Sequence record: OK322699.1
From: Escherichia phage Sa157lw
DNA length: 64,000 nt
Direction: 5' to 3' (one strand)
Numbering within the stretch: the stretch's first letter is position 1; each line of letters begins with the position of its first letter. The translations under genes and the position numbers were made by a program. A model generated the notes under the pieces. The model did no database searches and was not told the DNA's origin. It was given only the letters and a program-made list of their open reading frames with translations. Below are positions 843-17,061 of this stretch, in pieces.

Positions 843-844
843 AA

Positions 845-2035
845 ATGGCCGATTTCCTGAGTCAATATACAGGTCAGCAGATAGATCAGATATTGGGTTC
901 TGTTGACGACAAAGTAAGTAAAAACGACGTCATTGATGATTTTGAAGTCAGTGACCCATTGTTTCCGCCTTCTGCTCGCCTGACTTATGAGTTGAAAAGG
1001 TCTGTGGATACGATTAATGATACCCTGACCAACAAAGTTATAAGAACGGATAGTGGCGAACAGACAATCAACGGTAAGAAGACATTTAATGCGCTGTTGG
1101 TTACTAACGGGGGAATCCAAGTCCCCACTGGGAAATCTGTTTCAATCGCGGACGAACCAACCAACTCAACAGACGGTGTCAACCTGAGTATGTTGAGGAA
1201 ACATGGTGTCAGTGAAGACACCGCGCCAGATGGGTCTGGTTTGGCTGGGGAATTATTGACTTCCGGATATTACAAATTCAAACTGGATTTTAACAGATTG
1301 GCTGCGTATACGGAATTAACTCTCCCAACATCAGTTCCCGTGCAAACAGATTCTGGAGTTCGCACATGGTCAATGACTGCATTTTTTAATGCGTTATTTG
1401 CCGACAACCGTTTTAACGGTTATGTAACGACGACCACGTATGATGCCGACATGTTGAGTCTGGAGTCTCAGCTTAACAATATCAACACGACGTTGAACGG
1501 CAAAGTCAACACGTCAACTTACAACACAAAAATGGCTTCGTTGGATTTGAGTATATCCAACATTAACACATCTTTGAGCAACAAGGTTGAGGTCAGCACA
1601 TATAATACGAAGATGACTTCCTTGGACGGCAGTATCAGTTCTCTTACGACTGGTAAGGTCGATGTATCAACGTATAATGCCAAAATGGCCACAATTGATA
1701 ACAGTTTGGGGAACGCTGTTTATCGCACCAAAACAAACTTGTCATCACTGACGGTATCGGCTTCTGGAACAACAGCTCTGCCAGACTTTGATTTGGTGAA
1801 ACTTTGCCAGATATTGGTAACAGCACAATGGGGTACAGGAGATGTCGTAGACACATATCGAGTCACCATAACTCGAGATGGGACGATTAAGTCTGAGCTG
1901 CTGATCCAGAAAAGTACGAGCGGAACTGTGACGTTTACGGGTTCTGTAGTTGGTGGGAAACTGAGGATTTCTGTTGTCAATGCCAATACGACAACACCTT
2001 GCTCAGTCGATTATTCTATTACAGCATCTTTCTAA
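845..2035 (+). CDS. tail fiber-like protein with tandem repeats
   Basis: ATG at 845 with AAGGAG SD. Ser/Thr/Asn-rich with four ~25-aa repeats (VNTSTYNTKMASLDLSISNINTSLSNK and variants); position directly upstream of tailspikes. Confidence 0.55.
   Translation: MADFLSQYTGQQIDQILGSVDDKVSKNDVIDDFEVSDPLFPPSARLTYELKRSVDTINDTLTNKVIRTDSGEQTINGKKTFNALLVTNGGIQVPTGKSVSIADEPTNSTDGVNLSMLRKHGVSEDTAPDGSGLAGELLTSGYYKFKLDFNRLAAYTELTLPTSVPVQTDSGVRTWSMTAFFNALFADNRFNGYVTTTTYDADMLSLESQLNNINTTLNGKVNTSTYNTKMASLDLSISNINTSLSNKVEVSTYNTKMTSLDGSISSLTTGKVDVSTYNAKMATIDNSLGNAVYRTKTNLSSLTVSASGTTALPDFDLVKLCQILVTAQWGTGDVVDTYRVTITRDGTIKSELLIQKSTSGTVTFTGSVVGGKLRISVVNANTTTPCSVDYSITASF
1427..1745 (+). repeat. in-frame tandem repeats (about 4 x 24-27 codons) inside the fiber gene
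   Basis: Repeated protein motif xSTYNxKMxSLDxSIS visible in translation; boundaries approximate. Confidence 0.5.
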
Positions 2036-2037
2036 AA

Positions 2038-2077
2038 CTAAATACCCCTAGATGACATGAATACATTTAGGGGTATT
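2038..2077 (+). promoter_or_regulatory. late-promoter motif CTAAATACCCC (2038-2048) within a 10-bp perfect inverted repeat (2041-2050 / 2068-2077)
   Basis: AATACCCCTA and TAGGGGTATT are exact reverse complements; motif recurs upstream of other structural genes; ATG at 2082. Confidence 0.6.
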
Positions 2078-2081
2078 ACAA

Positions 2082-5000
2082 ATGGCCAACAAACCAACAC
2101 AGCCTCTTTTCCCTTTGGGTTTAGAAACTTCGGAGTCTTCGAACATAAAAGGCTTCAACAACTCCGGCACCATAGAGCATTCCCCTGGTGCAATATTGAC
2201 GTTCCCTGAAGATACTGATGTTGCGGGTCTCCCATCTTCTGTGCGTTACAATCCTGATAGTGATGAATTCGAAGGTTATTACGAAAATGGCGGGTGGTTG
2301 TCTTTGGGTGGTGGCGGAATACGCTGGGAAACGCTCCCATACGCTCCCTCCAGCAATCTGTTAGAAGGGCGCGGCTATCTCATTAATAACTCCACTGGGA
2401 CTTCTACGGTGGTTCTTCCTTCCCCTACGCGCGTTGGTGACTCGGTTACAATTTGTGATGCCTATGGTAAATTCGCGACGTATCCATTGACCGTATCTCC
2501 AGCGGGAAATAACCTGTACGGCTCCACCGAAGATATGACGATATCCACCGATAACGTGTCGGCGACTTTCACTTGGTCTGGTGCTGAGCAGGGTTGGGTT
2601 GTTACATCTGGTGTTGGCCTCGGTCAAGGTCGTGTGTACAGTCGAGAGATTTTCACTCAAATTTTAGCATCTGATACAAATGAAGTGACTCTCAACATCC
2701 CTCCGACAATTGTGGACGTGTACACTGATGGGAAACGCCTTACAGAATCCAAATATTCTTTAAATGGAAACGTAATCACTTTCGACCCTTCTTTACCTGC
2801 TGGCACTGAATTGCAGGTAATAGAATATACTCCGATTCAGTTAGGTACTGGCGGCGGGGGTTCGGGCGCTTCTGCAATCACCTGGATTTACAATGGCGGA
2901 TCCGCTATCGGCGGCGAAACCGAAATAACGCTAGACATCGTTGTAGATGATGTTCCGGCTATTGATATAAACGGGTCTCGTCAGTACAAAAATCTTGGAT
3001 TCACGTTCGACCCATTGACGAGTAAAATCACTCTGACGCAAGAACTGGAACCAGAAGATGAAGTTGTTGTGGTTATAAATGGGACACCAAACATTTATAA
3101 CCAGATCGATCGTTCTTTACAGGAAGTTGCTCGCGCCTACAATTTTACAAATGCTCAAGTTATTTTGAGCAACGATTATACTTCTGCACTGGATAATAAA
3201 GTCGTTATTTATGATACGACATCCCAACGTTCTTGGGGGATTCCATCTGGAATTCCAGCAGGTTCTACAGTGGTTTCCGTCAATGGGGATCAACTGAAAT
3301 ACAAAAATGGATCAACTGAAACCACTGTTACATTGGTGAGCGTACCAGGTAGTGCAGAGAAGTTGAAGAACGATCTGGCGTCGAACTCTGGCGCGGGCAT
3401 GTTGAAAACTTCTAGAGGTGATACCGTAGAAGAAGAATTGACTTTTATTAATCAGAATATGGTCGTTCAAATTTCAGATTTCGCGAGCCTTAGAACTTTA
3501 GTGCCAGCCACAGCGGGCATCCGAGTCAAATTGAAAGGTTATTATTCTGGTTCTGAAATCGGTGGCGGAGAATTCATTTCCGTCGCTGGTGATGCTGTTG
3601 ATGATGCTGGGATGATTGCTCGAGTGTCAAGCAGCTTTTATTGGAAGAGAATTATCGACAAACATATTACTCCTGGTATGTATGGCATCAAAGGGAATCT
3701 TCCAGAAGATCCGGCAGTGAAACTGAACGCTATGTTTACGGCTGCGGCTGCGGCTAACGCTTATGTCTTACTGAACGATGTTGATACTCTGGTCTGTAAA
3801 AGCCCTGTCGTGATCCCAGCACATTCATTAGTGTACGGCAACAAACGGACCATATTGAAACGTGATGCATCGTTGTCATATGCTAATGATTTCTTGACAA
3901 TTATGAATGATTCATATGTCAAGGGGATCTATGTTGATGGTAGCCGTTTAGATTCTCAGACTCCTCTAGAAGCAGTTTTGGTGCGCATCGCTGGGAATGT
4001 GACTATCCATAAGAGCGAGATCCGAAACAATGCTGGCTATGGCGTTGTTGGTAACGCAGTCCCTGGCATTCGTATCACCAAGAACATTTTTTCCAACTTC
4101 GCCAAAGGTTGTGTGGCTATGTTTGGCGACGGAACGGCGACGAGTGATGATCTGCAAATTAATGATAACAGATTCTTTAACCTGGGCGCGGGAACCATTT
4201 ATGTTGGCGGTTACTCAAACTTCCTTGTCGACAAAAACGTCGGAAGAGGCACTTACGTGGGTTCTCCAGGAAACCGTCTGTATGTTGTGACCAATACCAA
4301 CGGGACTATCACCCAAAGCGCTGGGCCAGATTTTGGGGCGCTGAAAACGGGTATGTTCTTTGTATTGCCTGGTGGTTCTGAACATATGATAACTGCTGTC
4401 AACAGCCTTACAAGTGTGACAGTAACCCCACCACCGCCGTCGAACGCCACAGTTCGTGCAATCGCAGGGACAGGGGATCTTCTGGGCATCCAATCATGCT
4501 CCTACGGCACCATCAGCCGTAACAACCTGACCGATTGTGTGACTTACGGAACTGGTGGAGGCACGATGGAGGGGAGCACTCTGGGTTGCAATTATGTCAC
4601 TTGGGAAGACAACTTCATCCGCAACACAGGTAAGAACGGAATCAACGTCGGGCAATCAGGTGCTGGGGTCGCCACGTGTTCTATCCTGAGGAACACTCTG
4701 ATACAGGTTGGTAACGGCGGTCAGGGTGTTGGCCCAGCGTATCTTCTGCCTTGGTTCGATACGGTAGGTATCGCTCTGTATCAGGGAAACCCAGGTTATA
4801 TGGCGAATATGGACGTCAGTGATAACAACGTCTCTACATGGTCTGGCGATCTGAATGACGGCGCTGCTTGGTTTGGTATGAGCGGTTGTACGGAAGCCAC
4901 TGTGACTTGTACAGGCAACAAATCTTCTGGTTATTCCGACGGCTATGTTCGTGGAGATATATTAGAAGTCACGTTGACAGGTTATGGTACAGGGGCGGCT

Positions 5001-5255
5001 GCGACTTCATTCGTTAGTGATGGTGAGTCTATACAGATAACCGTTCAAACAGGTACTTCACCAACAGCTTCTCCTTATTTTTCAGTGCGGAAGGCGATCC
5101 GCACCCGCCATCAACCGATGATAACGGCGCAGATCGTCACCACAACTGGGAACATGTCTCATTGTTGGGGTATGCAATCTAGTACAGCAGGAAACTGGAT
5201 GGTGGGTCAGAATACAACTCCTTCAGGGGTCACGACGTATTACGCAAAAGGGTAA
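2082..5255 (+). CDS. tailspike protein (1057 aa), T4 gp10-like N-terminal domains plus parallel beta-helix
   Basis: Shares an internal module with the 926-aa tailspike (DRSLQEVARAYNF...VVIYDTTSQ vs DRSIQEIARSANV...VVYDSAAQ); C-terminal NxGxG beta-helix-type repeats. Confidence 0.7.
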   Translation: MANKPTQPLFPLGLETSESSNIKGFNNSGTIEHSPGAILTFPEDTDVAGLPSSVRYNPDSDEFEGYYENGGWLSLGGGGIRWETLPYAPSSNLLEGRGYLINNSTGTSTVVLPSPTRVGDSVTICDAYGKFATYPLTVSPAGNNLYGSTEDMTISTDNVSATFTWSGAEQGWVVTSGVGLGQGRVYSREIFTQILASDTNEVTLNIPPTIVDVYTDGKRLTESKYSLNGNVITFDPSLPAGTELQVIEYTPIQLGTGGGGSGASAITWIYNGGSAIGGETEITLDIVVDDVPAIDINGSRQYKNLGFTFDPLTSKITLTQELEPEDEVVVVINGTPNIYNQIDRSLQEVARAYNFTNAQVILSNDYTSALDNKVVIYDTTSQRSWGIPSGIPAGSTVVSVNGDQLKYKNGSTETTVTLVSVPGSAEKLKNDLASNSGAGMLKTSRGDTVEEELTFINQNMVVQISDFASLRTLVPATAGIRVKLKGYYSGSEIGGGEFISVAGDAVDDAGMIARVSSSFYWKRIIDKHITPGMYGIKGNLPEDPAVKLNAMFTAAAAANAYVLLNDVDTLVCKSPVVIPAHSLVYGNKRTILKRDASLSYANDFLTIMNDSYVKGIYVDGSRLDSQTPLEAVLVRIAGNVTIHKSEIRNNAGYGVVGNAVPGIRITKNIFSNFAKGCVAMFGDGTATSDDLQINDNRFFNLGAGTIYVGGYSNFLVDKNVGRGTYVGSPGNRLYVVTNTNGTITQSAGPDFGALKTGMFFVLPGGSEHMITAVNSLTSVTVTPPPPSNATVRAIAGTGDLLGIQSCSYGTISRNNLTDCVTYGTGGGTMEGSTLGCNYVTWEDNFIRNTGKNGINVGQSGAGVATCSILRNTLIQVGNGGQGVGPAYLLPWFDTVGIALYQGNPGYMANMDVSDNNVSTWSGDLNDGAAWFGMSGCTEATVTCTGNKSSGYSDGYVRGDILEVTLTGYGTGAAATSFVSDGESIQITVQTGTSPTASPYFSVRKAIRTRHQPMITAQIVTTTGNMSHCWGMQSSTAGNWMVGQNTTPSGVTTYYAKG

Positions 5256-5265
5256 TATTGAATGC

Positions 5266-5302
5266 CTAAATACCCCATATTGGACATCCTTTATGGGGTA
5301 TT
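5266..5302 (+). promoter_or_regulatory. late-promoter motif CTAAATACCCC (5266-5276) within an 11-bp inverted repeat (5269-5279 / 5292-5302)
   Basis: AATACCCCATA / TATGGGGTATT exact reverse complements; right arm contains the GGGG SD of the ATG at 5306. Confidence 0.6.
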
Positions 5303-5305
5303 ATC

Positions 5306-7402
5306 ATGATTTCTCAATTCAATCAGCCACACGGCTCCACTTCAATATTTGTTAACAAACAATCTATCGCTCGAAATTTCGGTGTCAAAGAAGACGAAGT
5401 CGTTTATTTCACTGCTGGTATTGATCTCAGTGGATTTAAAGTAATTTATGATGAGTCTACCCAACGGGCTTATTCTCTTCCTTCGGGTATTGTTTCAGGA
5501 ACGACTGCGATAAGTCTGAACGAACAAGCCATCCTCACTCATTCCGCTGGCTCTGTTGACCTTGGGGAATTAGCAGTAAGCCGCGAAGAATATGTGACTT
5601 TACCTGGTTCTTTTAATTTCGGCCATACCATTAATGTGAAAAATGAACTTCTTGTTCACGATGATAAAAAATATCGATGGGATGGTTCACTTCCTAAAAC
5701 TGTCGATGCTGGCTCAACACCTGAAACATCTGGTGGCGTTGGTATTGGTACATGGCTGAGTGTTGGTGACGCAGCATTTAGACAGGAAGCCAACAAAAAA
5801 TTCAAATATTCAGTAAAGTTATCTGATTATTCTACATTACAGGATGCAGCGACAGCAGCCGTAGATGGATTGCTTATTGATGTTGACTACACTTTTACTG
5901 CAGATGAGAGTGTAGATTTTAGCGGTAAAGTTTTAATCATTGAATGCAAGGGAAAATTCATTGGCGATGGTATGTTGGTTTGGAATGGTTTGGGTGCGGG
6001 TTCAGTAATTAAGAAACCGCACATGCATACTAAAACTACGCCGTATACTGTTTACCGATTCGATGCAAACGGTAATTGGGTTACAGACCCAACACAAGTT
6101 CTGGCATCTGTTCAGCAGCGTTTGGATGTTGGATATAAGCCAAATATTAACGATTTAGATATTTGGGACGACCTTCCTGATAATGTAAAAAATCAGGTTG
6201 CTGGTGCTACTTTGCGAATAATGAGCGGCGATAATATCATCGTAGAGAACCCAGAAGCTACATTTGGTGGTTATCTATTTACTTTATGTAATAGGATTCT
6301 TGTTAAGAATCCACGCAATTTTATTGCTTTGGAATCGGGCATTACATTTGAGAACCATCATACAACTGCATGGGGTACTGGCAACTGGGTTGTTGGGGGT
6401 GAGATTAAATATGGCTCTGGTTCCGCTGTACTGTTCATTCGCAATGATGGTGGTACAGACCATGATGGTGGAGTAAGGGATTTAATATCCTATCGCGTTG
6501 GAGAATCTGGTGTTAAAACCTATCAAAATGAAATAGGTGGTCGTTCAGCCAGGAACTACCGTTTAGTGTTCGACAATATAACTACAATCCAGTGTTACTA
6601 TGATGGTATTGATGTTAATGCTGACACAGGGTCGCCAACTGAACGTGTGGATGACTACTCACTCGCAGAGTATCCATGGTTCCACCTACCTACTCAACAT
6701 ATCATCCGTAATATTATTACTCGTGATTGTATGGGGATTGGTGCTTGGTGGGATGGTCAGAAAAATATTATTGATAATGTTGTTACTTATGAGGCCCATA
6801 AGGAAGGCGTCTTCGATAGGGGTACTAACAATGATATTACTAACATTACTGTAGTAGGTGCGAATAAGGATTTAACTAACCTAAATCAGATTACCTGTGA
6901 GGGAGGTAGTAGACTTCGTGGTATTAACATCCATGCATATACTACACAAGGTTACGCTATATACGCTCCGTCTTCAGAAGTAAGTAATGTTTCCTGTGCT
7001 GGTTCCGGTACTAAGAAATTACTATGTACCTATATAAGCGATATTCAGGGAGGTAATATCAATGTTCAGCATAGTGCCAACCAAATGACACTTGCAATGC
7101 AACCTGCTATGGGTGGTACTACAAACCCATCTTTGCTTATGACGGCAGATTGCCAGGTTGCTACACCAGGGGGTGAGGCAAGTATTGTCAAGCTTTCGGC
7201 AATTCAGGAGGGTGTACGTGTAGGTGAGTTTCAGCTTAACCGCTTAGGCTTTAAGCATATGAGTATACCTGCTGCCCCTTTACAATTACCAGAGAGCGCT
7301 CTGGAACATAATTCATCTATAGGATTCTTCTTCGGAAGTGACGGAGCATTGAGGTTGCTTGCTAAAAAACCAGATGGAAGTTATGTAACATACACACTTT
7401 AA
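5306..7402 (+). CDS. tailspike protein (698 aa) with N-terminal anchor domain shared with the 596-aa tailspike
   Basis: First ~140 aa align with the 10338 gene (GSTS...IARNFGVKEDEVVYFTAG...QRAYSLPS vs GSTS...IARKFGCKKSEVVYAKAG...QRAYSLPS); divergent C-terminus. Confidence 0.65.
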   Translation: MISQFNQPHGSTSIFVNKQSIARNFGVKEDEVVYFTAGIDLSGFKVIYDESTQRAYSLPSGIVSGTTAISLNEQAILTHSAGSVDLGELAVSREEYVTLPGSFNFGHTINVKNELLVHDDKKYRWDGSLPKTVDAGSTPETSGGVGIGTWLSVGDAAFRQEANKKFKYSVKLSDYSTLQDAATAAVDGLLIDVDYTFTADESVDFSGKVLIIECKGKFIGDGMLVWNGLGAGSVIKKPHMHTKTTPYTVYRFDANGNWVTDPTQVLASVQQRLDVGYKPNINDLDIWDDLPDNVKNQVAGATLRIMSGDNIIVENPEATFGGYLFTLCNRILVKNPRNFIALESGITFENHHTTAWGTGNWVVGGEIKYGSGSAVLFIRNDGGTDHDGGVRDLISYRVGESGVKTYQNEIGGRSARNYRLVFDNITTIQCYYDGIDVNADTGSPTERVDDYSLAEYPWFHLPTQHIIRNIITRDCMGIGAWWDGQKNIIDNVVTYEAHKEGVFDRGTNNDITNITVVGANKDLTNLNQITCEGGSRLRGINIHAYTTQGYAIYAPSSEVSNVSCAGSGTKKLLCTYISDIQGGNINVQHSANQMTLAMQPAMGGTTNPSLLMTADCQVATPGGEASIVKLSAIQEGVRVGEFQLNRLGFKHMSIPAAPLQLPESALEHNSSIGFFFGSDGALRLLAKKPDGSYVTYTL

Positions 7403-7417
7403 TTTATCTTGAGCAAA

Positions 7418-7445
7418 AACCCCGCTTTGGCGGGGTTCTTATTAT
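7418..7445 (+). terminator. rho-independent terminator (AACCCCGC-TTTG-GCGGGGTT plus T-rich tail)
   Basis: Perfect 8-bp GC-rich stem directly after the stop at 7402. Confidence 0.6.
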
Positions 7446-7475
7446 ACCTTTGTTCATAAATTTTATTAGTTCAGA

Positions 7476-7513
7476 CTAAATACCCCATATTGGCAAATCC
7501 TTATGGGGTATTT
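7476..7513 (+). promoter_or_regulatory. late-promoter motif CTAAATACCCC (7476-7486) within a 12-bp inverted repeat (7478-7489 / 7502-7513)
   Basis: AAATACCCCATA / TATGGGGTATTT exact reverse complements; right arm contains the SD for the ATG at 7518. Confidence 0.6.
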
Positions 7514-7517
7514 TCAA

Positions 7518-10283
7518 ATGACCAGAAATGTAGAAGAATTATTCGGCGGCGTAATCACAGCTCCCCACCAGATTCCTTTCACGTATAAATCAAATGTCGG
7601 TGGAGAAACTTTCATTTCTCTACCTTTCTATCCTGTCGCTGGTGTTGTCACAATTAACGGCGGGGTGCAAGTTCCGTTAGACAACTTCGAAATAGACGGG
7701 AATACGTTAAACCTCGGGCGCGCATTGTCTAAAGATGACGTGGTTTATTGCCTGTTCGACAAAATCCTTTCACCAGAAGATACTTCTAAAGGTATTCGAA
7801 TATACAAATTTCAAGCCGTGGGTGGAGAAACTGAATTCACGCCTGACTTTACTTCTTATGGTGTCCAGTCTCTTTATATCGGTGGTGAGTACAAAACTCC
7901 TGATATAGAATATTCATACAACAGTACGACTGGGAAAGTTTCCTTACAAACTGCGCTGACTGCAGGGGTGTGGGTTGTTGCGGAGATGTCTGTTAAACAA
8001 CCGAATATCAGTCCGGCGTTCGATCGCAGTATCCAAGAAATTGCCCGTTCGGCTAACGTAAAAGACTCTGAAGTCATTGTCAGCACTGATACCATATCTT
8101 TACTCGACGACAAGAAAGTTGTTTATGATTCAGCGGCGCAGATTATTTATGGTTTACCAACTATCCCTGATGGTTCAGTGATTTCTTCTGTTAGTAATGG
8201 GCAACTTACTTATAATCCAGGTAATGTTGTAGTGGATTTGTTGCCTTTAGAAGATTCATTTATTAATGTGATAAACACTCTGGGGCGCAATGATGGTGCC
8301 AAGTATATCGGAGAATGCCATTCTGTTGCTGATCTCAGGAATACTGAACCCACTATGGATGGACAACGCATTATTCTTAAGCAACACACTGCGGGTACTC
8401 TTCTTGGTGGAGGGGTATTCCGTGCGTTAATTGATGGTACAGGAAAGACTGATGATAACGGCACTGTGATCAAAACTGTTGGAGGCGCAGCCTGGTTACG
8501 TGTTAATGCTGATAGAGTTAACCCATTCATGTTTGGTGCTTTGGGCGGTTCTAATGATGATACTATTCCAGTACAATCTTGTGTGGACAGTGGTAAGGCC
8601 ACACAATTAACTGGTGTACATTACGTTAGCAATATCCGGTTAAAATATAATACGTCGTCTATTTATGGGTCTGGATTACATTACTCCAGGTTGCATCAGT
8701 TGCCTTCTGCTACTGGGAATTGTATTACCATAAAAGATACATGCTCCCTTATTGTATTAGACTCCTTTGGGGTATATGGCACAGGTGCACAACAAGGCAC
8801 ATCATTTACTGCGGGTACAACAGGTATCTATATAGAAACTCCTTCAGGTCTCTCAGCTGATTATCCGTTCCACACTACCGCAGACCCAAGACGCGACTTG
8901 TGTATTTCTAAGGTCCATATAGCAGGTTTTGATGAATATGGGTTAAATATTGATAGTGGTAACTTTAGTGTTACTACAGATTCTCTTTTAGTCAACCACA
9001 TCAATCAGGTGGGCGTCCGTTGTGCTACTACTGATTGGACTTGGACAAATATCCAGGTTAATACCTGCGGTAAACAATGTCTGGTTCTTGATGGTTGTGG
9101 TAATGGTCGTATTATTGGTGGTAAATTCATTTGGGCTAACTGGCAACCTTATGGTACAGTAGGACAGTTCCCAGGCATTACTATTAATAATAGCCAGAAT
9201 ATGGTTATTAATGGTATTGAGGTACAAGATTGTGGCGGGAATGGCATTGAGATTAGCGATTCATATTCAATTTCCATGAACGGATTGAACACCAATCGTA
9301 ACGGCATCAACGCTAACAACACTTTCTACAACATCGTATTTAACAAAAGTGATGCAGTTATCAACGGATTCGTAGGACTCAATTATGCCGCGAATAGTGG
9401 TTCAGGTGCTAACTCTAGTGCGGGCAATTTTCAGTTCCTGTCTAATGATTGCAGCGTCACCATTAATGGTGTGGTTGAGACTGGTTATATGGGCATTAAC
9501 TTTATTGGTGATAACAATATTATCAACCCCACAAATTCCGACCTGAGCATTAACGGATTGGTTAATTATTCCAAGACTGGTTTGCAAACCATGAACGAGA
9601 CCCCTACATTTGATGGTGTTAGCACTACACCTGTTTATGTAAGTGTCCCATCTTCTGTAGGGCAAGTAAATGGTCTGAGACTATCACAAGCCAACAAAGA
9701 TAAATTACTGTACTCAAGAACAGCAGGTCCAGAAGGTATTACCATGGCTGCTGTTGTAGTACCTACCATATCTGGAGCTGAAGTATTTAACTTCATGGCC
9801 ATTGGTTCAGGGTTTAGTGATACATCCAACAGTCTTCATCTTCAATTAGTTATAGACGCTTCCGGAAAACAAACAATTGCTTTGCTATTGGGGGGCGATG
9901 GTACAACCCAAATTTTATCTGGGGATTTACCTAACGACCTTAAACTACAAAGTGGTGTGCCATATCATATAGCTATTGGTGCTAAACCTGGATATTTCTG
10001 GTGGAGTATTCTTAATATTCAGACGGGTAAGAGAATCAGACGGTCATTCCGAGGCGCTTATTTAGCTGTACCATTTAATTCTATATTCGGATTAACTTCT
10101 TCATTAACATTCTTCTCGGATAGCAATGCTGGTGGGGATGCCTGTTCTGGTGTAGGTGCTAAAGTGTATGTTGGTATGTTCTCTTCTGAGAATGATTATG
10201 TAGCTTCACGGTACTACAACCTGATTAATCCTGTAGACCCTAATAAGTTAATTAGTTACCGTATATTGGATTCTTCTATTTAA
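7518..10283 (+). CDS. tailspike protein (921 aa from ATG 7518), gp10-like domains plus parallel beta-helix
   Basis: ORF-track start 7503 lies inside the palindrome; ATG 7518 preferred. Beta-helix repeats (VINGIEVQDCGGNGIEISDS...). Shares module with the 1057-aa tailspike. Confidence 0.7.
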   Translation: MTRNVEELFGGVITAPHQIPFTYKSNVGGETFISLPFYPVAGVVTINGGVQVPLDNFEIDGNTLNLGRALSKDDVVYCLFDKILSPEDTSKGIRIYKFQAVGGETEFTPDFTSYGVQSLYIGGEYKTPDIEYSYNSTTGKVSLQTALTAGVWVVAEMSVKQPNISPAFDRSIQEIARSANVKDSEVIVSTDTISLLDDKKVVYDSAAQIIYGLPTIPDGSVISSVSNGQLTYNPGNVVVDLLPLEDSFINVINTLGRNDGAKYIGECHSVADLRNTEPTMDGQRIILKQHTAGTLLGGGVFRALIDGTGKTDDNGTVIKTVGGAAWLRVNADRVNPFMFGALGGSNDDTIPVQSCVDSGKATQLTGVHYVSNIRLKYNTSSIYGSGLHYSRLHQLPSATGNCITIKDTCSLIVLDSFGVYGTGAQQGTSFTAGTTGIYIETPSGLSADYPFHTTADPRRDLCISKVHIAGFDEYGLNIDSGNFSVTTDSLLVNHINQVGVRCATTDWTWTNIQVNTCGKQCLVLDGCGNGRIIGGKFIWANWQPYGTVGQFPGITINNSQNMVINGIEVQDCGGNGIEISDSYSISMNGLNTNRNGINANNTFYNIVFNKSDAVINGFVGLNYAANSGSGANSSAGNFQFLSNDCSVTINGVVETGYMGINFIGDNNIINPTNSDLSINGLVNYSKTGLQTMNETPTFDGVSTTPVYVSVPSSVGQVNGLRLSQANKDKLLYSRTAGPEGITMAAVVVPTISGAEVFNFMAIGSGFSDTSNSLHLQLVIDASGKQTIALLLGGDGTTQILSGDLPNDLKLQSGVPYHIAIGAKPGYFWWSILNIQTGKRIRRSFRGAYLAVPFNSIFGLTSSLTFFSDSNAGGDACSGVGAKVYVGMFSSENDYVASRYYNLINPVDPNKLISYRILDSSI

Positions 10284-10337
10284 AAATATACCCCTCTTCG
10301 GAGGGTATTTACTAGAGAAAAACAGGAGATTCTTATT

Positions 10338-12128
10338 ATGAATCCGCAATTTGCTCAACCGAAAGGTTCTACTTCAAAAGAAACGAACAAAGATAGCATT
10401 GCCCGTAAATTTGGGTGTAAAAAGTCGGAAGTCGTTTATGCCAAAGCAGGACAGTCCTTGTCTGGTTATAAAGTGATCTATGATAAGGTGTCTCAACGTG
10501 CCTATTCTCTTCCTTCTAACATTGATGCTGTAACGGTCACCAGTTTAGTTGACGGCATCCTTACGCACTCTGGAGGCACCGTAGATTTAAATGAATTGGC
10601 AATGACACGCCGCGAGTTTATTACTTTGCAAGGAGACTTTGTTTCCGGTGTTACCGTCAATGCTAAGCATGAAGTGATCGCATACGGAAATAGCCGATTC
10701 CGTTGGGACGGGGATCTGCCGAAAGTTGTTCCCCCTAATTCAGAACCTGTCATACCAGATTGGGTTAACGTTGATGCCAACCCAGCACTGTCTGAATTAG
10801 CGAAATCTGTTGGCTCGTCTCTGGTGGGATATAAACCAACGGGGACAACCACTACGACTGGTACGGTCAAAGGAAAATTGGATAGTTTTATTGATTTTGC
10901 AAATGACTATTGCGGTGGCCCAATTACAGGACAACCTGATCTCACTTCTCAATTACAACAAGCAATTATTGATGCTTTTAATTCTGGTATTGCCGACATT
11001 AAGATTGTTGGGGATTTTTATATATCTGGCATGATATTATGGTATCCAGGTGTTCGATTGATTGGTGGACGTTATGACTCTACATTGATACGCGTTTCCA
11101 ATACTTTCCCAGTGGGTGGGACAATGTTTCGTTCTTACCGTCCTCCACTGTGGGCGGCGGGTTGTCATGGTCTATCTCTTGAAAATGTGTATTTGGTAGG
11201 CCGCGCCGCCAAGGACGTTTATGGCATAGATATCAATGATGCATCTTATTTTAATCTTGAAGGTGTGCGTCTGGATCTGTTTGATAAAGCAATTTCTTTT
11301 AATAGATGGATTGATGAAACTCGTGTAGACACGAGCGGTACAATTACCTATCCCAACGCGCATAGTGCCGAAATGGGTGGCCAATCATATTTTGGTACAA
11401 TAACTCGTTGCTACGCAGGCAATTGCGTCACGTGCGTTGATTTTAATGGTGTGGTAAACCGTTGTACATTTATTAGCAACACATGGACAACTAGTGATCT
11501 GGCATATAATTTCAGCAACCCGCGTGGAGTTTATGAAACTAACACATTCATCACTTGTAATATTGAAGGTGTGAAGAGTGCATTTGAATGGTTCTTTTCT
11601 ATAAATTCACCATATCACAATGTGTGGATTAATACGAGCATCGATAACGGGAACCCAGATATCACGAGTTTAGCGAAAGATGGTGGTCGACAGACATTTA
11701 TTGGTTTAGCGATTTTCCCTTATGGAAACCCATCGTTGGTTAATTGGTATGGAATTAACCCCAATGGTCATCGGAGTACTGTCTTGGGTACTGATCTTGG
11801 GGAAAATTTACCAGAAGATCAGTTAAAAACTCAGGTTCGGGAAGAATTACACACTTTAACAGGTATTGCCAACAAGCAATGGGCTGGACAACAAGTAACT
11901 GAGACAATTCCCGCCAATGGTTACAAAGCATTGAATATTAGCGTGCCAGGATTAAAAGGTAACTCAGCAGTTATTGCTTCATTATCTGCCATATATCATG
12001 GTATTACAGTTGATGCCGCCAGCAACAACACTGGTACAGTTTCAGTAATAATAAGCAATTACACAGGTTCTCCAATTGATGTAAATGCTTACCTGAGTGT
12101 CACAGGCATAGCCAAAAGTTTCTTGTGA
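10338..12128 (+). CDS. tailspike protein (596 aa) with N-terminal anchor domain shared with the 698-aa tailspike
   Basis: ATG with CAGGAG SD; N-terminal homology to the 5306 gene; C-terminal region differs. Confidence 0.65.
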   Translation: MNPQFAQPKGSTSKETNKDSIARKFGCKKSEVVYAKAGQSLSGYKVIYDKVSQRAYSLPSNIDAVTVTSLVDGILTHSGGTVDLNELAMTRREFITLQGDFVSGVTVNAKHEVIAYGNSRFRWDGDLPKVVPPNSEPVIPDWVNVDANPALSELAKSVGSSLVGYKPTGTTTTTGTVKGKLDSFIDFANDYCGGPITGQPDLTSQLQQAIIDAFNSGIADIKIVGDFYISGMILWYPGVRLIGGRYDSTLIRVSNTFPVGGTMFRSYRPPLWAAGCHGLSLENVYLVGRAAKDVYGIDINDASYFNLEGVRLDLFDKAISFNRWIDETRVDTSGTITYPNAHSAEMGGQSYFGTITRCYAGNCVTCVDFNGVVNRCTFISNTWTTSDLAYNFSNPRGVYETNTFITCNIEGVKSAFEWFFSINSPYHNVWINTSIDNGNPDITSLAKDGGRQTFIGLAIFPYGNPSLVNWYGINPNGHRSTVLGTDLGENLPEDQLKTQVREELHTLTGIANKQWAGQQVTETIPANGYKALNISVPGLKGNSAVIASLSAIYHGITVDAASNNTGTVSVIISNYTGSPIDVNAYLSVTGIAKSFL

Positions 12129-12134
12129 TCAAAC

Positions 12135-12162
12135 AACCCCGCTTCGGCGGGGTTTTTATTTC
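12135..12162 (+). terminator. rho-independent terminator (AACCCCGC-TTCG-GCGGGGTT plus T-run)
   Basis: Perfect stem and T-tract after stop at 12128. Confidence 0.65.
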
Positions 12163-12183
12163 TATCTGTCTGTTGGCTGTATA

Positions 12184-12203: not shown

Positions 12204-12222
12204 CACTCGATGGAGCATCAAA

Positions 12223-15200
12223 ATGCAATCTACAAATCTAAACCGTCGCCCGTATTGGGACGACTGGAATCCTGGAAAACGGTTTTCACGGATTCTTTTT
12301 CGCCCGATGCCTATTAAGGTTCAGACACGTGAACTGAACCAGATGCAGACTATTCTACAAGACCAGATTGAAAAGCTGGGAAACCATCTGTTCAAAGATG
12401 GATCTATGGTTATTCCTGGCGGTCTGACGATTACTAACGCCGCTGTGTCTATGAAATTCACCCTGGCTGGTGGCACTGAGTTCACTGATCTGGAAGGGAT
12501 TACTGAACTTTATGTTCTGGGAAAAGACAATAACGCCAAAGCGCGTGTGCTATCTCTTGAACGTGATCTGTCTGCTCCGGATACGATGTTGGCCATCCTT
12601 GAAATGACAGAAGTGGGTAATGCAGATGGCTTCCACGTCAACGACAATCTGTATTTCCAAACTTATGACGTCAATGACAACTTCATTCGTATTGGTTATG
12701 GTATCGCAGCTGCGGTGACTGGTTCTATCGTCGCTCGTATGACGAAGGGCGTTTACTTCATTCGTGGGATGTTCCTTGATGTTGATGACGCGACTCTCAT
12801 CGTCGATAAAACTTCAAACACTTCTTCCCATCGCGTCGGGTTTAAAGTCACCGAAACCATCGTGACTGAATCTGAAGACGAATCCCTTTATTCAAACGCT
12901 CAGGGAACGATTAACTCCAAAGCCCCAGGCGCTCATCGTCTTCGAATAGATCTGGTCTTATCTCGATTTGATTATGATGCTGTGGTTGAAGACTTTGTTG
13001 AACTGGCCAAAGTTCGTGATGGTAAAATCCAGTCTATGGTGACTCAGTCCACCTATAATATTCTGGAAGACACGTTGGCTCAACGGACGTATGAAACCAA
13101 CGGCGATTACAACGTTTCAACGCATCAGATCGACATCCGCGAACACCTGAAAGTCAATAACAATGGTGGTGTATTCAATGCTGCTGATGGCGGCGACGAA
13201 AGTAAATTCGTGTCTGTAATGAAACCAGGTATTTCCTATGTTCGCGGTCGTCGTATCGAAAACGTCGGGGAAGAGTTGGTGATCGTTGACAAGGCACGGG
13301 ATACCGATGTCCTGAATAACACGCCTGTCGCAGTTGCTACAGGGAATTATCTGGTCACCAAGAACTCCAAAGGTGTTCCAGTAATATCTCGCACAGTGCG
13401 ATACAAGTTATTGAACGCATCTGGCGCTGCTCAAGCCACGGCGTTGTGTATATCCGCTGAACGCAATTCAACTGAATTCCGTCTGTACATGCGTGATTTG
13501 GTTGTGACTGGGGACGCGTCCACTATCACCAAAGTGTCTTATGAAGAAAGTGGGATCACCATGTTCTCTGCCGAACTGGAATCCAACCAGTTTAACCAGA
13601 GTTCTATGGTAGACCTGATCTTCTCTCTTCCGGTCTTCGGTGTTAAAACATTAGCGCCAACAGGTTCCGTGGATATCAACTACACAGTCCTCAGAACTTA
13701 TAAGGTGACGCTAGACAGCAGCGGTTCTGGTTCTATTTCAGCCCCGCTGGGATATAGTTTCTCTCCTGAATTTTCGTTGTATTCTTCTGCGAAATCCGAT
13801 GGTTCAGAAGCGCAATTTGATATCTCTGGCTCTTTGTCACTGACTGGTTCTCCGGTGGGTTCGGCTTTGCAGATTTCCCTGGGTAGCGGTAATGCTAACC
13901 AGTCAATCAATTTGCTGGCACTGATGATCCGCACTACGGCCACGATCAAAACGAAGACGATAACTGAAACCACAGAGTCTGTGACTTTTACTTCCCAAAC
14001 CAGTAGACCTCTGGCAAATCACGACGGCTGGAAATTGGTATCTGTCAAAAATGATACTGGCGCGGACGTGACTTCGAGCTTCACCCTCGACGGTGGTCAA
14101 CGCGATGCGGGATATTACAAGGCTAATCTGTTATCCACCGCCGGAGCCATTTCAGGGACGTATACGGTGGTGTATCAATACTTCGCGCATAGTTCGGGGG
14201 ATTTCTTCTCAGCGGATTCGTATACTTCAATGGATTACAAAGATATCCCGAATTATACATCCTCCACATCAGGGGCGGTGTATGGTTTGGCCGATAGCCT
14301 TGATTTCCGTCCGAAAATTACCAACGGGACATCCGACACTGATATGGTTCGCCCGAATACGGCTGTCATCCTGGACACAGAGTATTATTTGCCTCGTATC
14401 GACGCGATTTATCTGGCAGATAATGGCGTGTTTGGTGTAGCCCGTGGCATCAGTTCCAACAACCTGGCGTCCCCAGCAATACCTGCAAACTCCATGCGTT
14501 TGTATGAACTGTTGATTCCCCCATACACGCCGAATATCGATGATATACAAATTCGCACCATCGATAACCGTCGTTATACGATGCGTGATATCGGTAAACT
14601 GGAAACGCGTATTTCCAACGTTGAATACTACACCTCTCTGTCGCAGCTGGAATCTTCGGCGATGACACAACAGGTATTTGATCCAATCACGGGTAATCCG
14701 CGATTCAAAAACGGTATCGCCGCCGATCCATTCAAAGACTTCCGTCTTATTGATGATCTGTCTGAAGATTGGATGGGATCTATCGATACGGAAAATGGAC
14801 GTTTGCGTCCGTTTGTTCAACAGAACGCCGTTGACATGACTCCAGTAGGCTGGAACAAAGTGATGGATGGTATGGTGGTTTGTAACTACACGCCTGAAAT
14901 CTCCGTAAACCAAGAATACGCGACGACGACGATCAACGTTAACCCGTATGCTGTATTCAACTGGGAAGGTTTCTTGAAGATTAACCCGACCACGGATTAC
15001 TGGTTTGAAAACTACTATGTCGCCCCGCGTGTTATCAATGAAACGATCAACACTCGTGGTACTGTACAAGAAGGTTCGGTGTACGGGACGTGGCGTACTG
15101 TTTCTGTTTCTGATCGTGTTTGGGAGCCGCATGGCGCTGGTGGTGTGTGGTGGGGATACCGCTATCGCACGACTGTTTCTGCCCGTGATGTCACCACATA

Positions 15201-17061
15201 CACATACACGGACAAAACAACCACGACCATGACTGGCGAACAGATTGTGGAAACGCAGGTTATCCCATACATGCGCGAAATTGATATTTCTTTCGACGCT
15301 TCTGGGTTGCGACCTTTCACTCGCATGTATGCATTCTTCTCAGGTCGTGATGTGAATCTGTATTGCAAGCCGAATGGCGGTAATTTTGGTGACCCAATCA
15401 CCACTGATGCCAATGGCGCAGTCAAAGGCGTGTTCCGCGTTCCTCAGAACGATACGATCAAGTTCAACACAGGTGACAACGTGTTCCGCTTAACGGATAG
15501 CCCTGTTGACAGTAAATCTGCAGATGATACGCTGACCAATGCTGAAATTGTTCACAAGTCTTTCGGTAAGAAACAAGGGATTCAAAAGACCTTTGTCAAC
15601 ACTCGAGTTCTGGGTTATACCGCAAGCACCAGCACCGAAACCAGCACTTCTGAAGTTGTGGTCGATCAATGGCGTGATCCAATTGCCCAATCGTTTATGG
15701 TGGCAACTAAGATCGGTGGTGAATATATCGAAGGCGTGGAAGTATTCTTCTCCACCAAGTCACGTGATGTTCCGATCACCCTGGAAATTCGCGAGATGGA
15801 GAATGGATTACCGTCCCATACCGTCATAACTCGTAAAACTTTGAACCCGTCTGAAGTGACGATCTCTACAGACTCTTCCGGCGGAACGAAGTTCACCTTC
15901 GATTATCCGGTGTACTTGCAAGCATCGACTGAGTTTGCTATTGTTTTGTTGGCGAATACTCAGGATTACAACGCGTATATCGCGGAAATGGGCAAGAAAA
16001 ACCTTTTGTCCAACGAATATATCGCCAAGCAGCCGTATACAGGGGTGTTCTTCACTTCTTCAAACGGTTCAACATGGTCTCCCAACCAGATGGCAGATAT
16101 GAAGTTCCGTGTTTATCGTTGTAACTTTGCTGCTGGACAGAACGTTGTAACATTTGATCCGAAACTTGGACCGAAACAACGTCCGCTGGGATTGAACACT
16201 CTCAACTGTGTGAGCGGGTCTTCTGTCGTGACCGTGTTTGCGCCTGGTCATGGTTTGGTTGCTGGGAACAATGTTACTCTGTCTGAATTGACAGGTGGCT
16301 GTGGATTTACTCCTGAACAACTTAACAAAACATTTACCGTGACAGATGCGAGCTATACTTCATTCAAGATCGATGTCGGTTCAGCGGCAGACAGCAACGG
16401 GCAAATCGGCGGGGATAATGCTTCATTCTTGGGCAATTATCTGGTTGACATGTTCTATGCCAGTGTCACCAATTCAGCTCTGGAAGGTTCAATTCTGAAA
16501 TTGGAATATCGCTATCGCGATGCTACTTCCAATTCTATGTCTGATTGGGCTGAATTTGAAACTGACACTGACGTGGCGTTGCCGACTGAAGGGATCTATC
16601 GTCAGGTTGGGGATTTCCAGATCCGAGCCACCATGACGCGCAGTGAAAACAACGTGTACACCGCTCCAATGATTGATGGCGATGACCTGAGCGTAATCTT
16701 CAACTCATACGGCGTGGATCCATTTGAAGATGTCTTCAAATATGTGACAAAAGACATCGGATTTGATAACCCATGTTCGACTGTGAAGTTGTTCTTTGGT
16801 GCAATGCTCCCATCTCAGTCTTCTATGAAGGTGCAGGTGAAACTTCTTAGAGCAGGTCAGGAGATGGATAGTGTGGCTTGGGAAGATGTTACTCCAACGT
16901 CGCCTCTGGTCAACGACGGTTCTACATTCTTTGAATATGAATACGACAAGACTGTGGCGAGCAATAACCCGTTTGTTGGCCTGAAAGTCCGAGCGCTTGT
17001 ACGGGGGAACCGCGTTGCTCCTCCATCATTCAAAGACTTCCGTCTTATTGCTCTGGCATAA
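12223..17061 (+). CDS. large virion structural protein (1612 aa), function unassigned
   Basis: Long ORF between the tailspike genes and the neck genes; internal repeat of motif FKDFRLI (mid-protein and C-terminus). No firm homology recalled. Confidence 0.5.
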   Translation: MQSTNLNRRPYWDDWNPGKRFSRILFRPMPIKVQTRELNQMQTILQDQIEKLGNHLFKDGSMVIPGGLTITNAAVSMKFTLAGGTEFTDLEGITELYVLGKDNNAKARVLSLERDLSAPDTMLAILEMTEVGNADGFHVNDNLYFQTYDVNDNFIRIGYGIAAAVTGSIVARMTKGVYFIRGMFLDVDDATLIVDKTSNTSSHRVGFKVTETIVTESEDESLYSNAQGTINSKAPGAHRLRIDLVLSRFDYDAVVEDFVELAKVRDGKIQSMVTQSTYNILEDTLAQRTYETNGDYNVSTHQIDIREHLKVNNNGGVFNAADGGDESKFVSVMKPGISYVRGRRIENVGEELVIVDKARDTDVLNNTPVAVATGNYLVTKNSKGVPVISRTVRYKLLNASGAAQATALCISAERNSTEFRLYMRDLVVTGDASTITKVSYEESGITMFSAELESNQFNQSSMVDLIFSLPVFGVKTLAPTGSVDINYTVLRTYKVTLDSSGSGSISAPLGYSFSPEFSLYSSAKSDGSEAQFDISGSLSLTGSPVGSALQISLGSGNANQSINLLALMIRTTATIKTKTITETTESVTFTSQTSRPLANHDGWKLVSVKNDTGADVTSSFTLDGGQRDAGYYKANLLSTAGAISGTYTVVYQYFAHSSGDFFSADSYTSMDYKDIPNYTSSTSGAVYGLADSLDFRPKITNGTSDTDMVRPNTAVILDTEYYLPRIDAIYLADNGVFGVARGISSNNLASPAIPANSMRLYELLIPPYTPNIDDIQIRTIDNRRYTMRDIGKLETRISNVEYYTSLSQLESSAMTQQVFDPITGNPRFKNGIAADPFKDFRLIDDLSEDWMGSIDTENGRLRPFVQQNAVDMTPVGWNKVMDGMVVCNYTPEISVNQEYATTTINVNPYAVFNWEGFLKINPTTDYWFENYYVAPRVINETINTRGTVQEGSVYGTWRTVSVSDRVWEPHGAGGVWWGYRYRTTVSARDVTTYTYTDKTTTTMTGEQIVETQVIPYMREIDISFDASGLRPFTRMYAFFSGRDVNLYCKPNGGNFGDPITTDANGAVKGVFRVPQNDTIKFNTGDNVFRLTDSPVDSKSADDTLTNAEIVHKSFGKKQGIQKTFVNTRVLGYTASTSTETSTSEVVVDQWRDPIAQSFMVATKIGGEYIEGVEVFFSTKSRDVPITLEIREMENGLPSHTVITRKTLNPSEVTISTDSSGGTKFTFDYPVYLQASTEFAIVLLANTQDYNAYIAEMGKKNLLSNEYIAKQPYTGVFFTSSNGSTWSPNQMADMKFRVYRCNFAAGQNVVTFDPKLGPKQRPLGLNTLNCVSGSSVVTVFAPGHGLVAGNNVTLSELTGGCGFTPEQLNKTFTVTDASYTSFKIDVGSAADSNGQIGGDNASFLGNYLVDMFYASVTNSALEGSILKLEYRYRDATSNSMSDWAEFETDTDVALPTEGIYRQVGDFQIRATMTRSENNVYTAPMIDGDDLSVIFNSYGVDPFEDVFKYVTKDIGFDNPCSTVKLFFGAMLPSQSSMKVQVKLLRAGQEMDSVAWEDVTPTSPLVNDGSTFFEYEYDKTVASNNPFVGLKVRALVRGNRVAPPSFKDFRLIALA

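Follow-up and report, generated by a model that had tools for sequence, protein, structure and literature searches.

A Kuttervirus tailspike cluster predicted to build a branched four-spike adsorption organ, with an AR2819-type block on a Vi01-like backbone

Introduction

What do four consecutive large reading frames on the plus strand of a 64-kb stretch of phage DNA (the window, by which we mean the whole stretch analysed) encode, how might their products come together on the virion, and from which phages were they drawn? An earlier note had read them as tandem tailspike genes for proteins of 1057, 698, 921 and 596 aa, forming a branched multi-spike apparatus as in the Ackermannviridae and constituting the probable host-range locus. 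We consider it very probable (roughly 0.93) that the four genes encode a branched, sugar-cutting four-spike adsorption organ in which an AR2819-type block sits on a Vi01-like backbone. [quoted passage not shown]

Gene content and layout of the locus

The four large frames are present at 2082-5255 (1057 aa), 5306-7402 (698 aa), 7503-10283 and 10338-12128 (596 aa), and their order, TSP4, TSP3, TSP2, TSP1, is that of CBA120 orf213-210. The third frame yields 926 aa when read from its first ATG (7503); a start at ATG 7518 gives 921 aa, and only the latter agrees with CBA120 TSP2 and with residues 1-921 of PDB 6W4Q. The 926-aa start was rejected as spurious because ATG 7503 sits in the 3' arm of the upstream hairpin and because all relatives, together with the crystal structure, begin at MTRNV. 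Minus-strand frames of 87-130 aa also occur inside the spike genes, entirely within strongly supported coding sequence.

The flanks place the cluster taxonomically. Upstream lies an orf215-like gene (845..2035, plus strand) whose 396-aa product, with four repeats of ~13 aa, is not a tailspike but a homologue of CBA120 orf215 and Vi01_174c ('putative tail fibre'; phrog_3838, E 9e-214); in relatives, the baseplate wedge genes stand directly upstream of this gene. Downstream, a plus-strand gene at 12223..17061 encodes the 1612-aa DUF4815 protein VriC (Pfam PF16075, E 6e-60), an annotation also carried by AR2819 gp57; VriC is a conserved marker adjoining the tsp cluster (PMC8432352). This order parallels CBA120 orf215, 213, 212, 211, 210 and 209 and Vi01_174c-169c, and in Kuttervirus at most four tsp genes are clustered between the baseplate wedge genes and vriC. 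The assignment of the locus, by sequence comparison, to the tailspike cluster of a Vi01/CBA120-like phage of the genus Kuttervirus, family Ackermannviridae, is therefore supported. Since each spike gene's protein is at least 99.8% identical to a deposited one, the cluster is real but ordinary.

Domain sharing among the four spikes

Pairwise alignment bears out the ~140-aa N-terminal domain that the earlier note had seen in the 698- and 596-aa proteins: TSP3 and TSP1 are 55% identical over 139 N-terminal residues (E 4e-41). The module proposed for the 1057- and 921-aa proteins is likewise real, TSP4 275-543 aligning with TSP2 100-348 (31% identity over ~270 residues, E 3e-29), but it is gp10-like only in part, as the common block consists of XD3, the TD1 head domain, the neck and D3', and the description 'internal' fails for the 921-aa protein, in which the XD domains are N-terminal. 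Moreover, all four spikes have the TD1 head fold in common, a point missed in the earlier note (TSP3 19-102 with TSP4 347-424, E 1e-5; TSP3 7-123 with TSP2 161-263, E 5e-6; TSP1 7-89 with TSP2 161-244, E 8e-7). The two pairs thus align as proposed, but the sharing is nested rather than strictly pairwise.

The C-terminal regions, by contrast with these N-terminal modules, are mutually unrelated, as had been supposed: no pair of the four proteins has significant similarity there. Beta-helix repeats had been noticed in the 1057- and 921-aa proteins, and these are indeed beta-helical, but so are the C-terminal domains of the other two. The right-handed parallel beta-helix follows for TSP2 and TSP3 from near-identity to solved structures; for TSP4 and TSP1 it is predicted from AlphaFold2 models that match tailspikes in Foldseek searches. 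TM-scores for these two models are low (0.2-0.45) and the monomer models position domains otherwise than the trimeric crystal structures do, so that we rely on E-values and consistent hit identity instead.

Architecture of the individual spikes

TSP4 (2082..5255, plus strand; subtype TSP4-12, baseplate-anchored hub spike) is 100% identical in DNA to AR2819 gp53, typed TSP4-12 (PMC10892097) and the sole match in an exact-sequence look-up, and 99.8% identical in amino acids to Vi01_173c. Its N-terminal assembly region (2082..3086, plus strand) matches PDB 7REJ/7RFO/7RFV over aa 1-339 (E ~1e-205). With domain limits taken from PMC8825819, it comprises an anchor domain (aa 1-75), a GGGG linker (76-79), XD1 (80-178), the linker GLGQGRVYSR (179-188), XD2 (189-249), a Gly-rich linker (TPIQLG) from 250, and the gp10-like XD3 (265-335). 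Over aa 1-343 the protein shares 90.4% identity with CBA120 TSP4, and the linkers of the two coincide in position. A TD1 head domain follows (aa 344-421; 3111..3344, plus strand), containing the recombination motif GTTAVSL in its local form, GSTVVSV (PMC8432352). The predicted receptor-binding part (aa ~449-1057; 3426..5252, plus strand), with Pfam Beta_helix at 631-719, is modelled as a neck helix, a D3'-like domain, a right-handed beta-helix and a C-terminal beta-sandwich (pLDDT 82.5, pTM 0.82); its best Foldseek matches are CBA120 TSP2 (7.7e-13), Klebsiella K2 depolymerases and Acinetobacter tailspikes.

TSP3 opens directly with a TD1-TD2 head (Tail_spike_N; aa 1-155; 5306..5770, plus strand; PDB 5W6F/6NW9, E 4e-93; PF18668, E 3e-26), 90.3% identical to CBA120 TSP3 residues 1-165, with an acidic TD1 (pI 4.7) and GTTAISL at aa 65-71. 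Its receptor-binding domain (aa 156-698; 5771..7402, plus strand; subtype TSP3-1) is a P22/9NA-type endorhamnosidase beta-helix that matches PF09251 (PhageP22-tail) over aa 161-697, which takes in profile positions 2-550 of 552 (E 1e-106; score 358 bits, cut-off 25). The domain aligns over its whole length with the P22 and Det7 tailspikes (1TSP, 2V5I) and is 85% identical to that of 9NA (3RIQ). In a HMMER alignment to 1QA1, E400, D433 and D436 align with the P22 catalytic residues Glu359, Asp392 and Asp395 (PMC9965104), leaving the triad intact. Unlike P22, with its own head-binding domain, or 9NA, with its own anchor, the TSP3 module sits on a Kuttervirus TD1-TD2 head. At the DNA level the binding domain is 100% identical to that of Marshall, Mooltan, STML-13-1 and others, these being typed TSP3-1 (PMC8432352).

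TSP2, in the 921-aa numbering and with domain limits from PMC7506556 and PMC8825819, starts at XD2 and XD3 (aa 1-168, gp10-like) followed by a single TD1 (aa 169-250), together forming its assembly region (7518..8267, plus strand), which is 92.4% identical to CBA120 TSP2 over aa 1-250. The receptor-binding domain (aa 251-921; 8268..10283, plus strand; subtype TSP2-1) is a beta-helix and a predicted E. coli O157 O-antigen glycosidase (PDB 6W4Q/5W6P, E = 0), and the full-length match to 6W4Q likewise has E = 0. Full-length identity to CBA120 TSP2 is 97.0%, the catalytic residues D506, E568, D571 and Y623 are conserved (PMC7506556), and the domain is 100% identical in DNA to AR2819 and CBA6.

TSP1, like TSP3, opens with TD1 and TD2 (aa 1-140; 10338..10757, plus strand; PF18668, E 2e-7), and both heads match those in 5W6F, 4OJ5 and 4QNL, the last suggesting a docking partner of the G7C gp63.1 type. 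The TSP1 TD1 is basic (net +4, pI 9.3), and the head is only 47% identical to that of CBA120 TSP1. The predicted receptor-binding domain, of the Vi01 TSP1 type (aa 141-596; 10758..12128, plus strand; beta-helix plus C-terminal beta-sandwich), is 100% identical in DNA to Vi01_170c; its AlphaFold2 model (pLDDT 75) finds CBA120 TSP3, TSP4 and TSP1 as best Foldseek matches (1e-18 to 1e-15), then the Sf6 and HK620 tailspikes. SilasIsHot, typed TSP1-18, is 94% identical at the DNA level.

A branched complex and its alternatives

The branched complex of CBA120 TSP4, TSP3, TSP2 and TSP1 has been solved, and reconstituted by ultracentrifugation; in the resulting model, TSP4 is the spike anchored to the baseplate, XD2-XD2 contacts hold TSP2 on TSP4, TSP1 sits on TSP4 XD3, and TSP3 joins TSP2 XD3 only once TSP4:TSP2 exists (PMC8825819). 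Comparison with the domain maps of CBA120 TSP1-4 (orf210-213; PDB 4OJ5, 6W4Q/5W6P, 5W6F/6NW9, 5W6H, 7REJ) reveals alike gene order and flanks and agreeing N-terminal layouts and linkers, in keeping with the branched apparatus first proposed; domain homology, conserved catalytic residues and folds were established in this analysis, as were gene content and the mosaic map. The differences lie in the binding modules: CBA120 TSP3 carries an O77 enzyme where the window has the endorhamnosidase, and different modules make up TSP4 from about residue 520 onwards and all of TSP1 past the head fold.

By analogy with CBA120, TSP4 would be the hub: its first ~75 residues would fix the trimer to the baseplate, and XD2 and XD3, gp10-like domains of predicted jelly-roll fold, would offer trimeric docking platforms for other fibres, much as in the branching adapters T4 gp10 and G7C gp66/gp63.1. 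[quoted passage not shown] The basic TD1 head of TSP1 (pI 9.3) would dock onto the acidic XD3 of TSP4 (pI 4.05), an electrostatic match also proposed for CBA120 (PMC8825819); with a head so far diverged from that of CBA120, the case for this contact is made by gene position, fold and charge. The earlier statement that two spikes dock onto two others would accordingly hold as in the CBA120 model, but it omits the baseplate anchor, the docking of TSP2 on TSP4 and the condition on TSP3. Each spike's trimeric right-handed beta-helix may bind and cleave one surface polysaccharide, so that the virion would display four specificities at once. Assembly order, docking partners, enzyme activity and receptors are here carried over from experiments on CBA120, S117 and Det7 (PMC8825819, PMC7506556, PMC8432352, PMC9965104, PMC11721090).

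Could each of the four proteins instead attach to the baseplate by itself, as an independent tailspike or fibre, in the manner of a podovirus that has several spike types? Every gene does come with translation signals of its own and three with their own promoter-like motif, yet the anchor domain occurs in TSP4 only, TSP2 begins directly at XD2, and TSP1 and TSP3 begin with the TD1 heads that bind XD3 platforms in CBA120; as N-termini are 90-92% identical to proteins of the reconstituted complex (PMC8825819), we give this reading hardly any weight. It is less improbable, but still unlikely, that the branched complex forms while only TSP2 (O157) and TSP3 (O:4/O:9) work, the C-termini of TSP4 and TSP1 being dead or receptor-less and their N-termini kept for assembly. 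The Kuttervirus literature examined assigns no receptor to TSP4-12 or Vi01-type TSP1, and broad panels found no activity for other Kuttervirus TSP1 and TSP4 types, leaving non-functionality a formal possibility; some such domains may be inactive or directed at untested hosts (PMC9965104). Against this, both domains are kept at 98-100% in many independent isolates, both are predicted with confidence as complete beta-helices, and relatives 50-60% identical occur on other anchors, namely PF09008 in Citrobacter prophages and PF18668 in ~70-kb contigs; this is the pattern expected of a mobile, selected module and not of a decaying one. Nothing contradicts the branched complex with four working spikes.

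Mosaic origin

Outside the block described below the window is about 100% identical to Vi01 (~99% over its 64 kb), and positions 2001-10480 are 100% identical in DNA to AR2819, which together indicate a natural recombinant. The identity to AR2819 gp53-gp56 (TSP4-12, TSP3-1, TSP2-1, TSP1-20) runs from TSP4 through TSP3 and TSP2 into TSP1, of which it takes in the first ~50 codons; beyond it, AR2819 differs, with a 744-aa TSP1 of another subtype and flanks 82-99% identical to the window. The Vi01 (ViI) cluster, Vi01_170c-173c, has a TSP1 as close in protein (99.8%) as its TSP4, and its TSP2 and TSP3 resemble ours N-terminally (94.7% over TSP2 aa 1-247; 89% over 154 aa of TSP3), but it carries the Vi-capsule 'maturation/adhesion' acetylesterase on TSP2 and an 846-aa TSP3 in place of the O157 and O:4/O:9 modules. 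The switches are sharp and fall within sequence shared by the two parents, at about 2000-2080 and 10291-10488. An 8.4-kb AR2819-type TSP4-TSP3-TSP2 block would thus have replaced Vi01's own on a Vi01-like backbone, displacing the acetylesterase TSP2, with one crossover in the conserved promoter/hairpin ahead of tsp4 and the other within the first 50 codons of tsp1.

Switches of this kind, in sequences common to both parents, are also what would result if two Kutterviruses, co-cultured or co-sequenced, had been assembled into a chimera, and an exact-sequence look-up of the 596-aa chimeric TSP1 found no match on record. Such an artefact is nevertheless very unlikely: none of the reading frames is broken, the conserved sites concerned are ones at which recombination is the documented mode of evolution and has been repeated in the laboratory (PMC8432352, PMC11414711), and the complete genome of Hercules_SET has a similar make-up, its Vi01-type TSP1 standing beside the TSP4 and TSP3 seen here. 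All four binding domains have a deposited Kuttervirus counterpart with 100% DNA identity, and the set TSP4-12, TSP3-1, TSP2-1 and Vi01-type TSP1 was found in 0 of the 50,697 phage records searched. On balance, we lean towards a previously unsampled natural recombinant with a Vi01 backbone, an AR2819-like TSP4-TSP3-TSP2 block, a novel spike set and loss of Vi-capsule targeting.

Receptors and host range

Receptor-specific depolymerases had been suggested for all four C-termini. TSP2 and TSP3 are essentially characterised proteins: CBA120 TSP2 is specific for E. coli O157 (PMC7506556), so the TSP2 target is probably the O157 O-antigen, and TSP3 would be an endorhamnosidase acting on the Salmonella O:4/O:9 O-antigen. 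TSP4 and TSP1 stand as predicted beta-helix folds, their C-terminal domains having modelled as beta-helix tailspikes; no catalytic residues could be named in these two domains, which were modelled as monomers, the real active sites of such enzymes often lying between subunits. For close relatives, experiments have demonstrated that host range is determined at this cluster (PMC8432352, PMC9965104, PMC11414711).

On sequence evidence alone, adsorption to E. coli O157 and to Salmonella of serogroups O:4/O:9 is to be expected, and the phage, unlike Vi01, should not need the Vi capsule. A true recombinant would have lost Vi-capsule targeting, gained E. coli O157 and Salmonella O:4/O:9, and retained two orphan binding domains. 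Host range evolves through swaps of binding modules at conserved head and anchor sequences, a process that is also exploited today for engineering the host range of Kutterviruses, and this locus is another natural case.

Expression signals and minor features

Neither tRNA genes, sought throughout the 64-kb window, nor meaningful tandem repeats (Tandem Repeats Finder, positions 1-17100) were found. A scan for sigma-70 promoters returned 28 sites against 36 expected; with no enrichment, host-type promoters are unsupported. The CTAAATACCCC motif, named for the Ackermannviridae in PMC7283392, has five matches in the window against 0.57 expected. It occurs on the plus strand as a regulatory motif with a 14-bp hairpin immediately 5' of TSP4 (2038..2077; dG -19.1, z -5.6), and with a hairpin 5' of TSP3 (5266..5302; dG -19.5, z -4.2) and of TSP2 (7476..7513; dG -16.7, z -3.3). 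Hairpins followed by T-runs, resembling intrinsic terminators, lie on the plus strand 3' of TSP3 (7418..7446) and 3' of TSP1 (12135..12163).

A tailspike cluster of known design

Four consecutive large ORFs on the + strand, as the earlier note had described, encode the tailspikes of Escherichia phage Sa157lw: TSP4 (2082-5255, 1057 aa), TSP3 (5306-7402, 698 aa), TSP2 (7503-10283, 926 aa in the ORF listing, or 921 aa if the ATG at 7518 is used) and TSP1 (10338-12128, 596 aa). The 926-aa version of TSP2 was rejected, as its ATG at 7503 lies within the 3' arm of the conserved hairpin upstream of the gene; the true start, 15 nt downstream at 7518 (MTRNV...), agrees with CBA120 orf211 and with residues 1-921 of PDB 6W4Q. 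The 921-aa length originally given for the third protein is therefore the correct gene model.

The cluster region matched 366 phage records by megablast, nearly all of them Kuttervirus (Ackermannviridae) of Salmonella and E. coli. Its gene order, namely orf215-like, TSP4, TSP3, TSP2, TSP1 and VriC, is identical to that of CBA120 (orf215/213/212/211/210/209) and Vi01 (Vi01_174c-169c). The downstream 1612-aa protein is a DUF4815 protein whose AR2819 homologue carries the annotation VriC, a marker used in the literature for locating the tsp cluster (PMC8432352). The first observation of four tandem tailspike genes is confirmed and its interpretation as a branched adsorption apparatus is supported; the structure, assembly and function of the system itself were known before. 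For every cluster gene, a relative with ≥99.8% protein identity has been deposited, and the sole new element is this particular combination of known alleles.

Nested domain sharing and assembly

The 698- and 596-aa proteins do possess the proposed common N-terminal domain of about 140 residues, with 55% identity across the first 139 residues (BLASTP, E 4e-41). The module shared by the 1057- and 921-aa proteins is likewise real, at 31% identity over ~270 residues (275-543 of TSP4 and 100-348 of TSP2; BLASTP, E 3e-29), but it is not gp10-like alone, as it spans the assembly domain XD3, the head domain TD1, the neck and the following D3' domain. TD1 is present in all four spikes, and in TSP4 and TSP2 it is preceded by the XD domains. 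Residues 19-102 of TSP3 match 347-424 of TSP4, and residues 7-123 of TSP3 and 7-89 of TSP1 match 161-263 and 161-244 of TSP2, respectively (E-values between 1e-5 and 8e-7); the four-way TD1 alignment contains 13 invariant columns. Both pairs of shared anchor domains are thus borne out, but the sharing is nested rather than strictly pairwise. Pairwise comparison of the four proteins revealed no sequence likeness between any two C-terminal regions, which are unrelated as claimed; the beta-helices noted in the 1057- and 921-aa proteins are present in both, but the description was incomplete in that all four C-termini are beta-helices.

Residues 1-339 of TSP4 correspond to the crystallised anchor and assembly fragment of CBA120 TSP4 (7REJ, 7RFO, 7RFV; E ~1e-205). 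Because identity to CBA120 TSP4 is 90.4% across 343 residues and three linkers occupy matching positions (GGGG at 76, GLGQGRVYSR at 179 and TPIQLG at 250), the published layout of anchor domain (AD) 1-75, XD1 80-178, XD2 189-249 and XD3 265-335 (PMC8825819) applies directly, and the suggested comparison with CBA120 domain maps yields agreement for this region. By analogy with experiments on CBA120 (PMC8825819, PMC11721090), TSP4 would be anchored to the baseplate through its AD, TSP2 would attach to TSP4 via XD2-XD2 contacts, and XD3 of TSP4 would hold TSP1. The 596-aa protein has a basic TD1 domain (net +4, pI 9.3), TSP4 a strongly acidic XD3 (net -9, pI 4.05), and the 698-aa protein an acidic TD1, as has CBA120 TSP3. 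These charges reproduce the electrostatic match proposed for TSP1:TSP4 and so support assignment of the 596-aa protein as TSP1 and the 698-aa protein as TSP3, with which gene position agrees.

Receptor-binding modules

Full-length TSP4 is 99.8% identical in protein sequence to Vi01_173c, and the DNA of its binding half is 100% identical to AR2819 gp53, which is typed TSP4-12 (PMC10892097). When residues 431-1057 were modelled with AlphaFold2 (pLDDT 82.5, pTM 0.82), a neck helix and a small domain were seen together with a long beta-helix and a C-terminal beta-sandwich; the model's best Foldseek matches were CBA120 TSP2 (7.7e-13), Klebsiella K2 depolymerases and Acinetobacter tailspikes.

In TSP3, residues 1-165 contain a Pfam Tail_spike_N domain and share 90% identity with the head of CBA120 TSP3. 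The segment 156-698 gives an end-to-end match to Pfam PhageP22-tail (E 1e-106) and shares 85% identity with the tailspike of phage 9NA (3RIQ, identified as such in PMC5015238); the catalytic E359, D392 and D395 of P22 correspond in the alignment to E400, D433 and D436. The DNA of this binding domain is 100% identical to that of Marshall, Mooltan, STML-13-1, SJ2 and many others, a type designated TSP3-1, for which phage S117 shows action on Salmonella O:4 and O:9 (PMC8432352).

Over its full length, TSP2 differs from CBA120 TSP2 by 28 substitutions (97.0% identity), mostly within the first 240 residues, and retains D506, E568, D571 and Y623 (PMC7506556). Judged by its sequence, it is subtype TSP2-1, the predicted E. 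coli O157 determinant. The TSP2 binding domain encoded on an unannotated, 'UNVERIFIED' 25-kb contig of Escherichia phage CBA6 (KM389302.1) and that of Sa157lw are 100% identical, and the vriC region of the contig is 99% identical; its TSP4 and TSP3 modules differ.

TSP1 is 99.8% identical in protein sequence to Vi01_170c, with 100% DNA identity in the binding domain. Its head bears Tail_spike_N and matches the TSP1, TSP3 and gp63.1 heads. The full-length AlphaFold2 model (pLDDT 75) retrieved CBA120 TSP3, TSP4 and TSP1 first in Foldseek, followed by the Sf6 and HK620 tailspikes. No receptor for Vi01-type TSP1 is assigned in the literature searched.

Binding modules of the Vi01 TSP1 type are also found joined to the P22 head-binding domain (PF09008) in tailspikes of Citrobacter prophages (53-64% identity), and TSP4-12 modules joined to Tail_spike_N on ~70-kb contigs (47-56% identity). 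Found on other anchors, both modules therefore circulate among unrelated phage types, and their occurrence in Citrobacter prophages gives a hint of what a receptor might be.

Regulatory sequences

The window contains exactly three copies of CTAAATACCCC, a named Ackermannviridae regulatory motif (PMC7283392), one immediately ahead of each of tsp4, tsp3 and tsp2; with one mismatch allowed, there are 5 matches against 0.57 expected. Each copy is directly followed by a stable hairpin of 11-14 bp (dG -16.7 to -19.5 kcal/mol, z -3.3 to -5.6), the combined elements spanning 2038-2077, 5266-5302 and 7476-7513, and terminator-like hairpins follow tsp3 and tsp1. The hairpin 3' arm (GGGGTAT) contains the only purine-rich, Shine-Dalgarno-like run ahead of the three start codons. 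The tsp1 gene has a plain AGGAG without the motif, and vriC a degenerate copy without a hairpin.

Mosaic origin of the cluster

A 500-bp sliding comparison against Vi01 and AR2819 delineated three segments: 1-2000 is ~99.6% identical to Vi01 and only 82-98% to AR2819, 2001-10480 is 100% identical to AR2819, and 10500-18000 is ~100% identical to Vi01 and 84-99% to AR2819. Both crossovers lie within stretches that the two parents have in common, one in the promoter/hairpin region before tsp4 and the other in the first ~50 codons of tsp1. Vi01 differs in its TSP3 and TSP2 binding modules, the latter annotated as a 'Vi maturation-adhesion' spike, and both are replaced in Sa157lw. A similar arrangement, but with another TSP2, is found in Hercules_SET. 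Megablast found no record with all four tsp genes in the phage collection, where only AR2819 reaches 80% coverage, and an exact-sequence look-up returned no record of the 596-aa TSP1 protein. Such evolution by module swapping has been described and experimentally reproduced for the genus (PMC8432352, PMC11414711, PMC9965104).

VriC (12223-17061, 1612 aa, DUF4815), a baseplate-associated protein, is likewise mosaic: it is ~100% identical to Vi01, but identity to AR2819 is only 84-92% in patches at 12000-14500 and 16500-17000. The most variable flank is the 396-aa orf215/Vi01_174c homologue (845-2035; 'putative tail fibre', phrog_3838), which is 82% identical to AR2819 around 1001-1500 and contains four ~13-aa repeats (V..STYN.KM.SLD); it may be a fifth protein in contact with the host, of fibre-like type.

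Elsewhere the window and Vi01 are colinear, with ~99% identity, the only other breaks being 52166-52621 and 54624-55770, where ORFs of 95, 269 and 222 aa gave no Pfam match. One break is a 455-nt segment that takes the place of 737 nt in Vi01, where Vi01_118c and Vi01_119c, a pyrimidine-dimer DNA glycosylase, are encoded; the other is a diverged stretch of ~1.1 kb with 81% identity or no match to Vi01.
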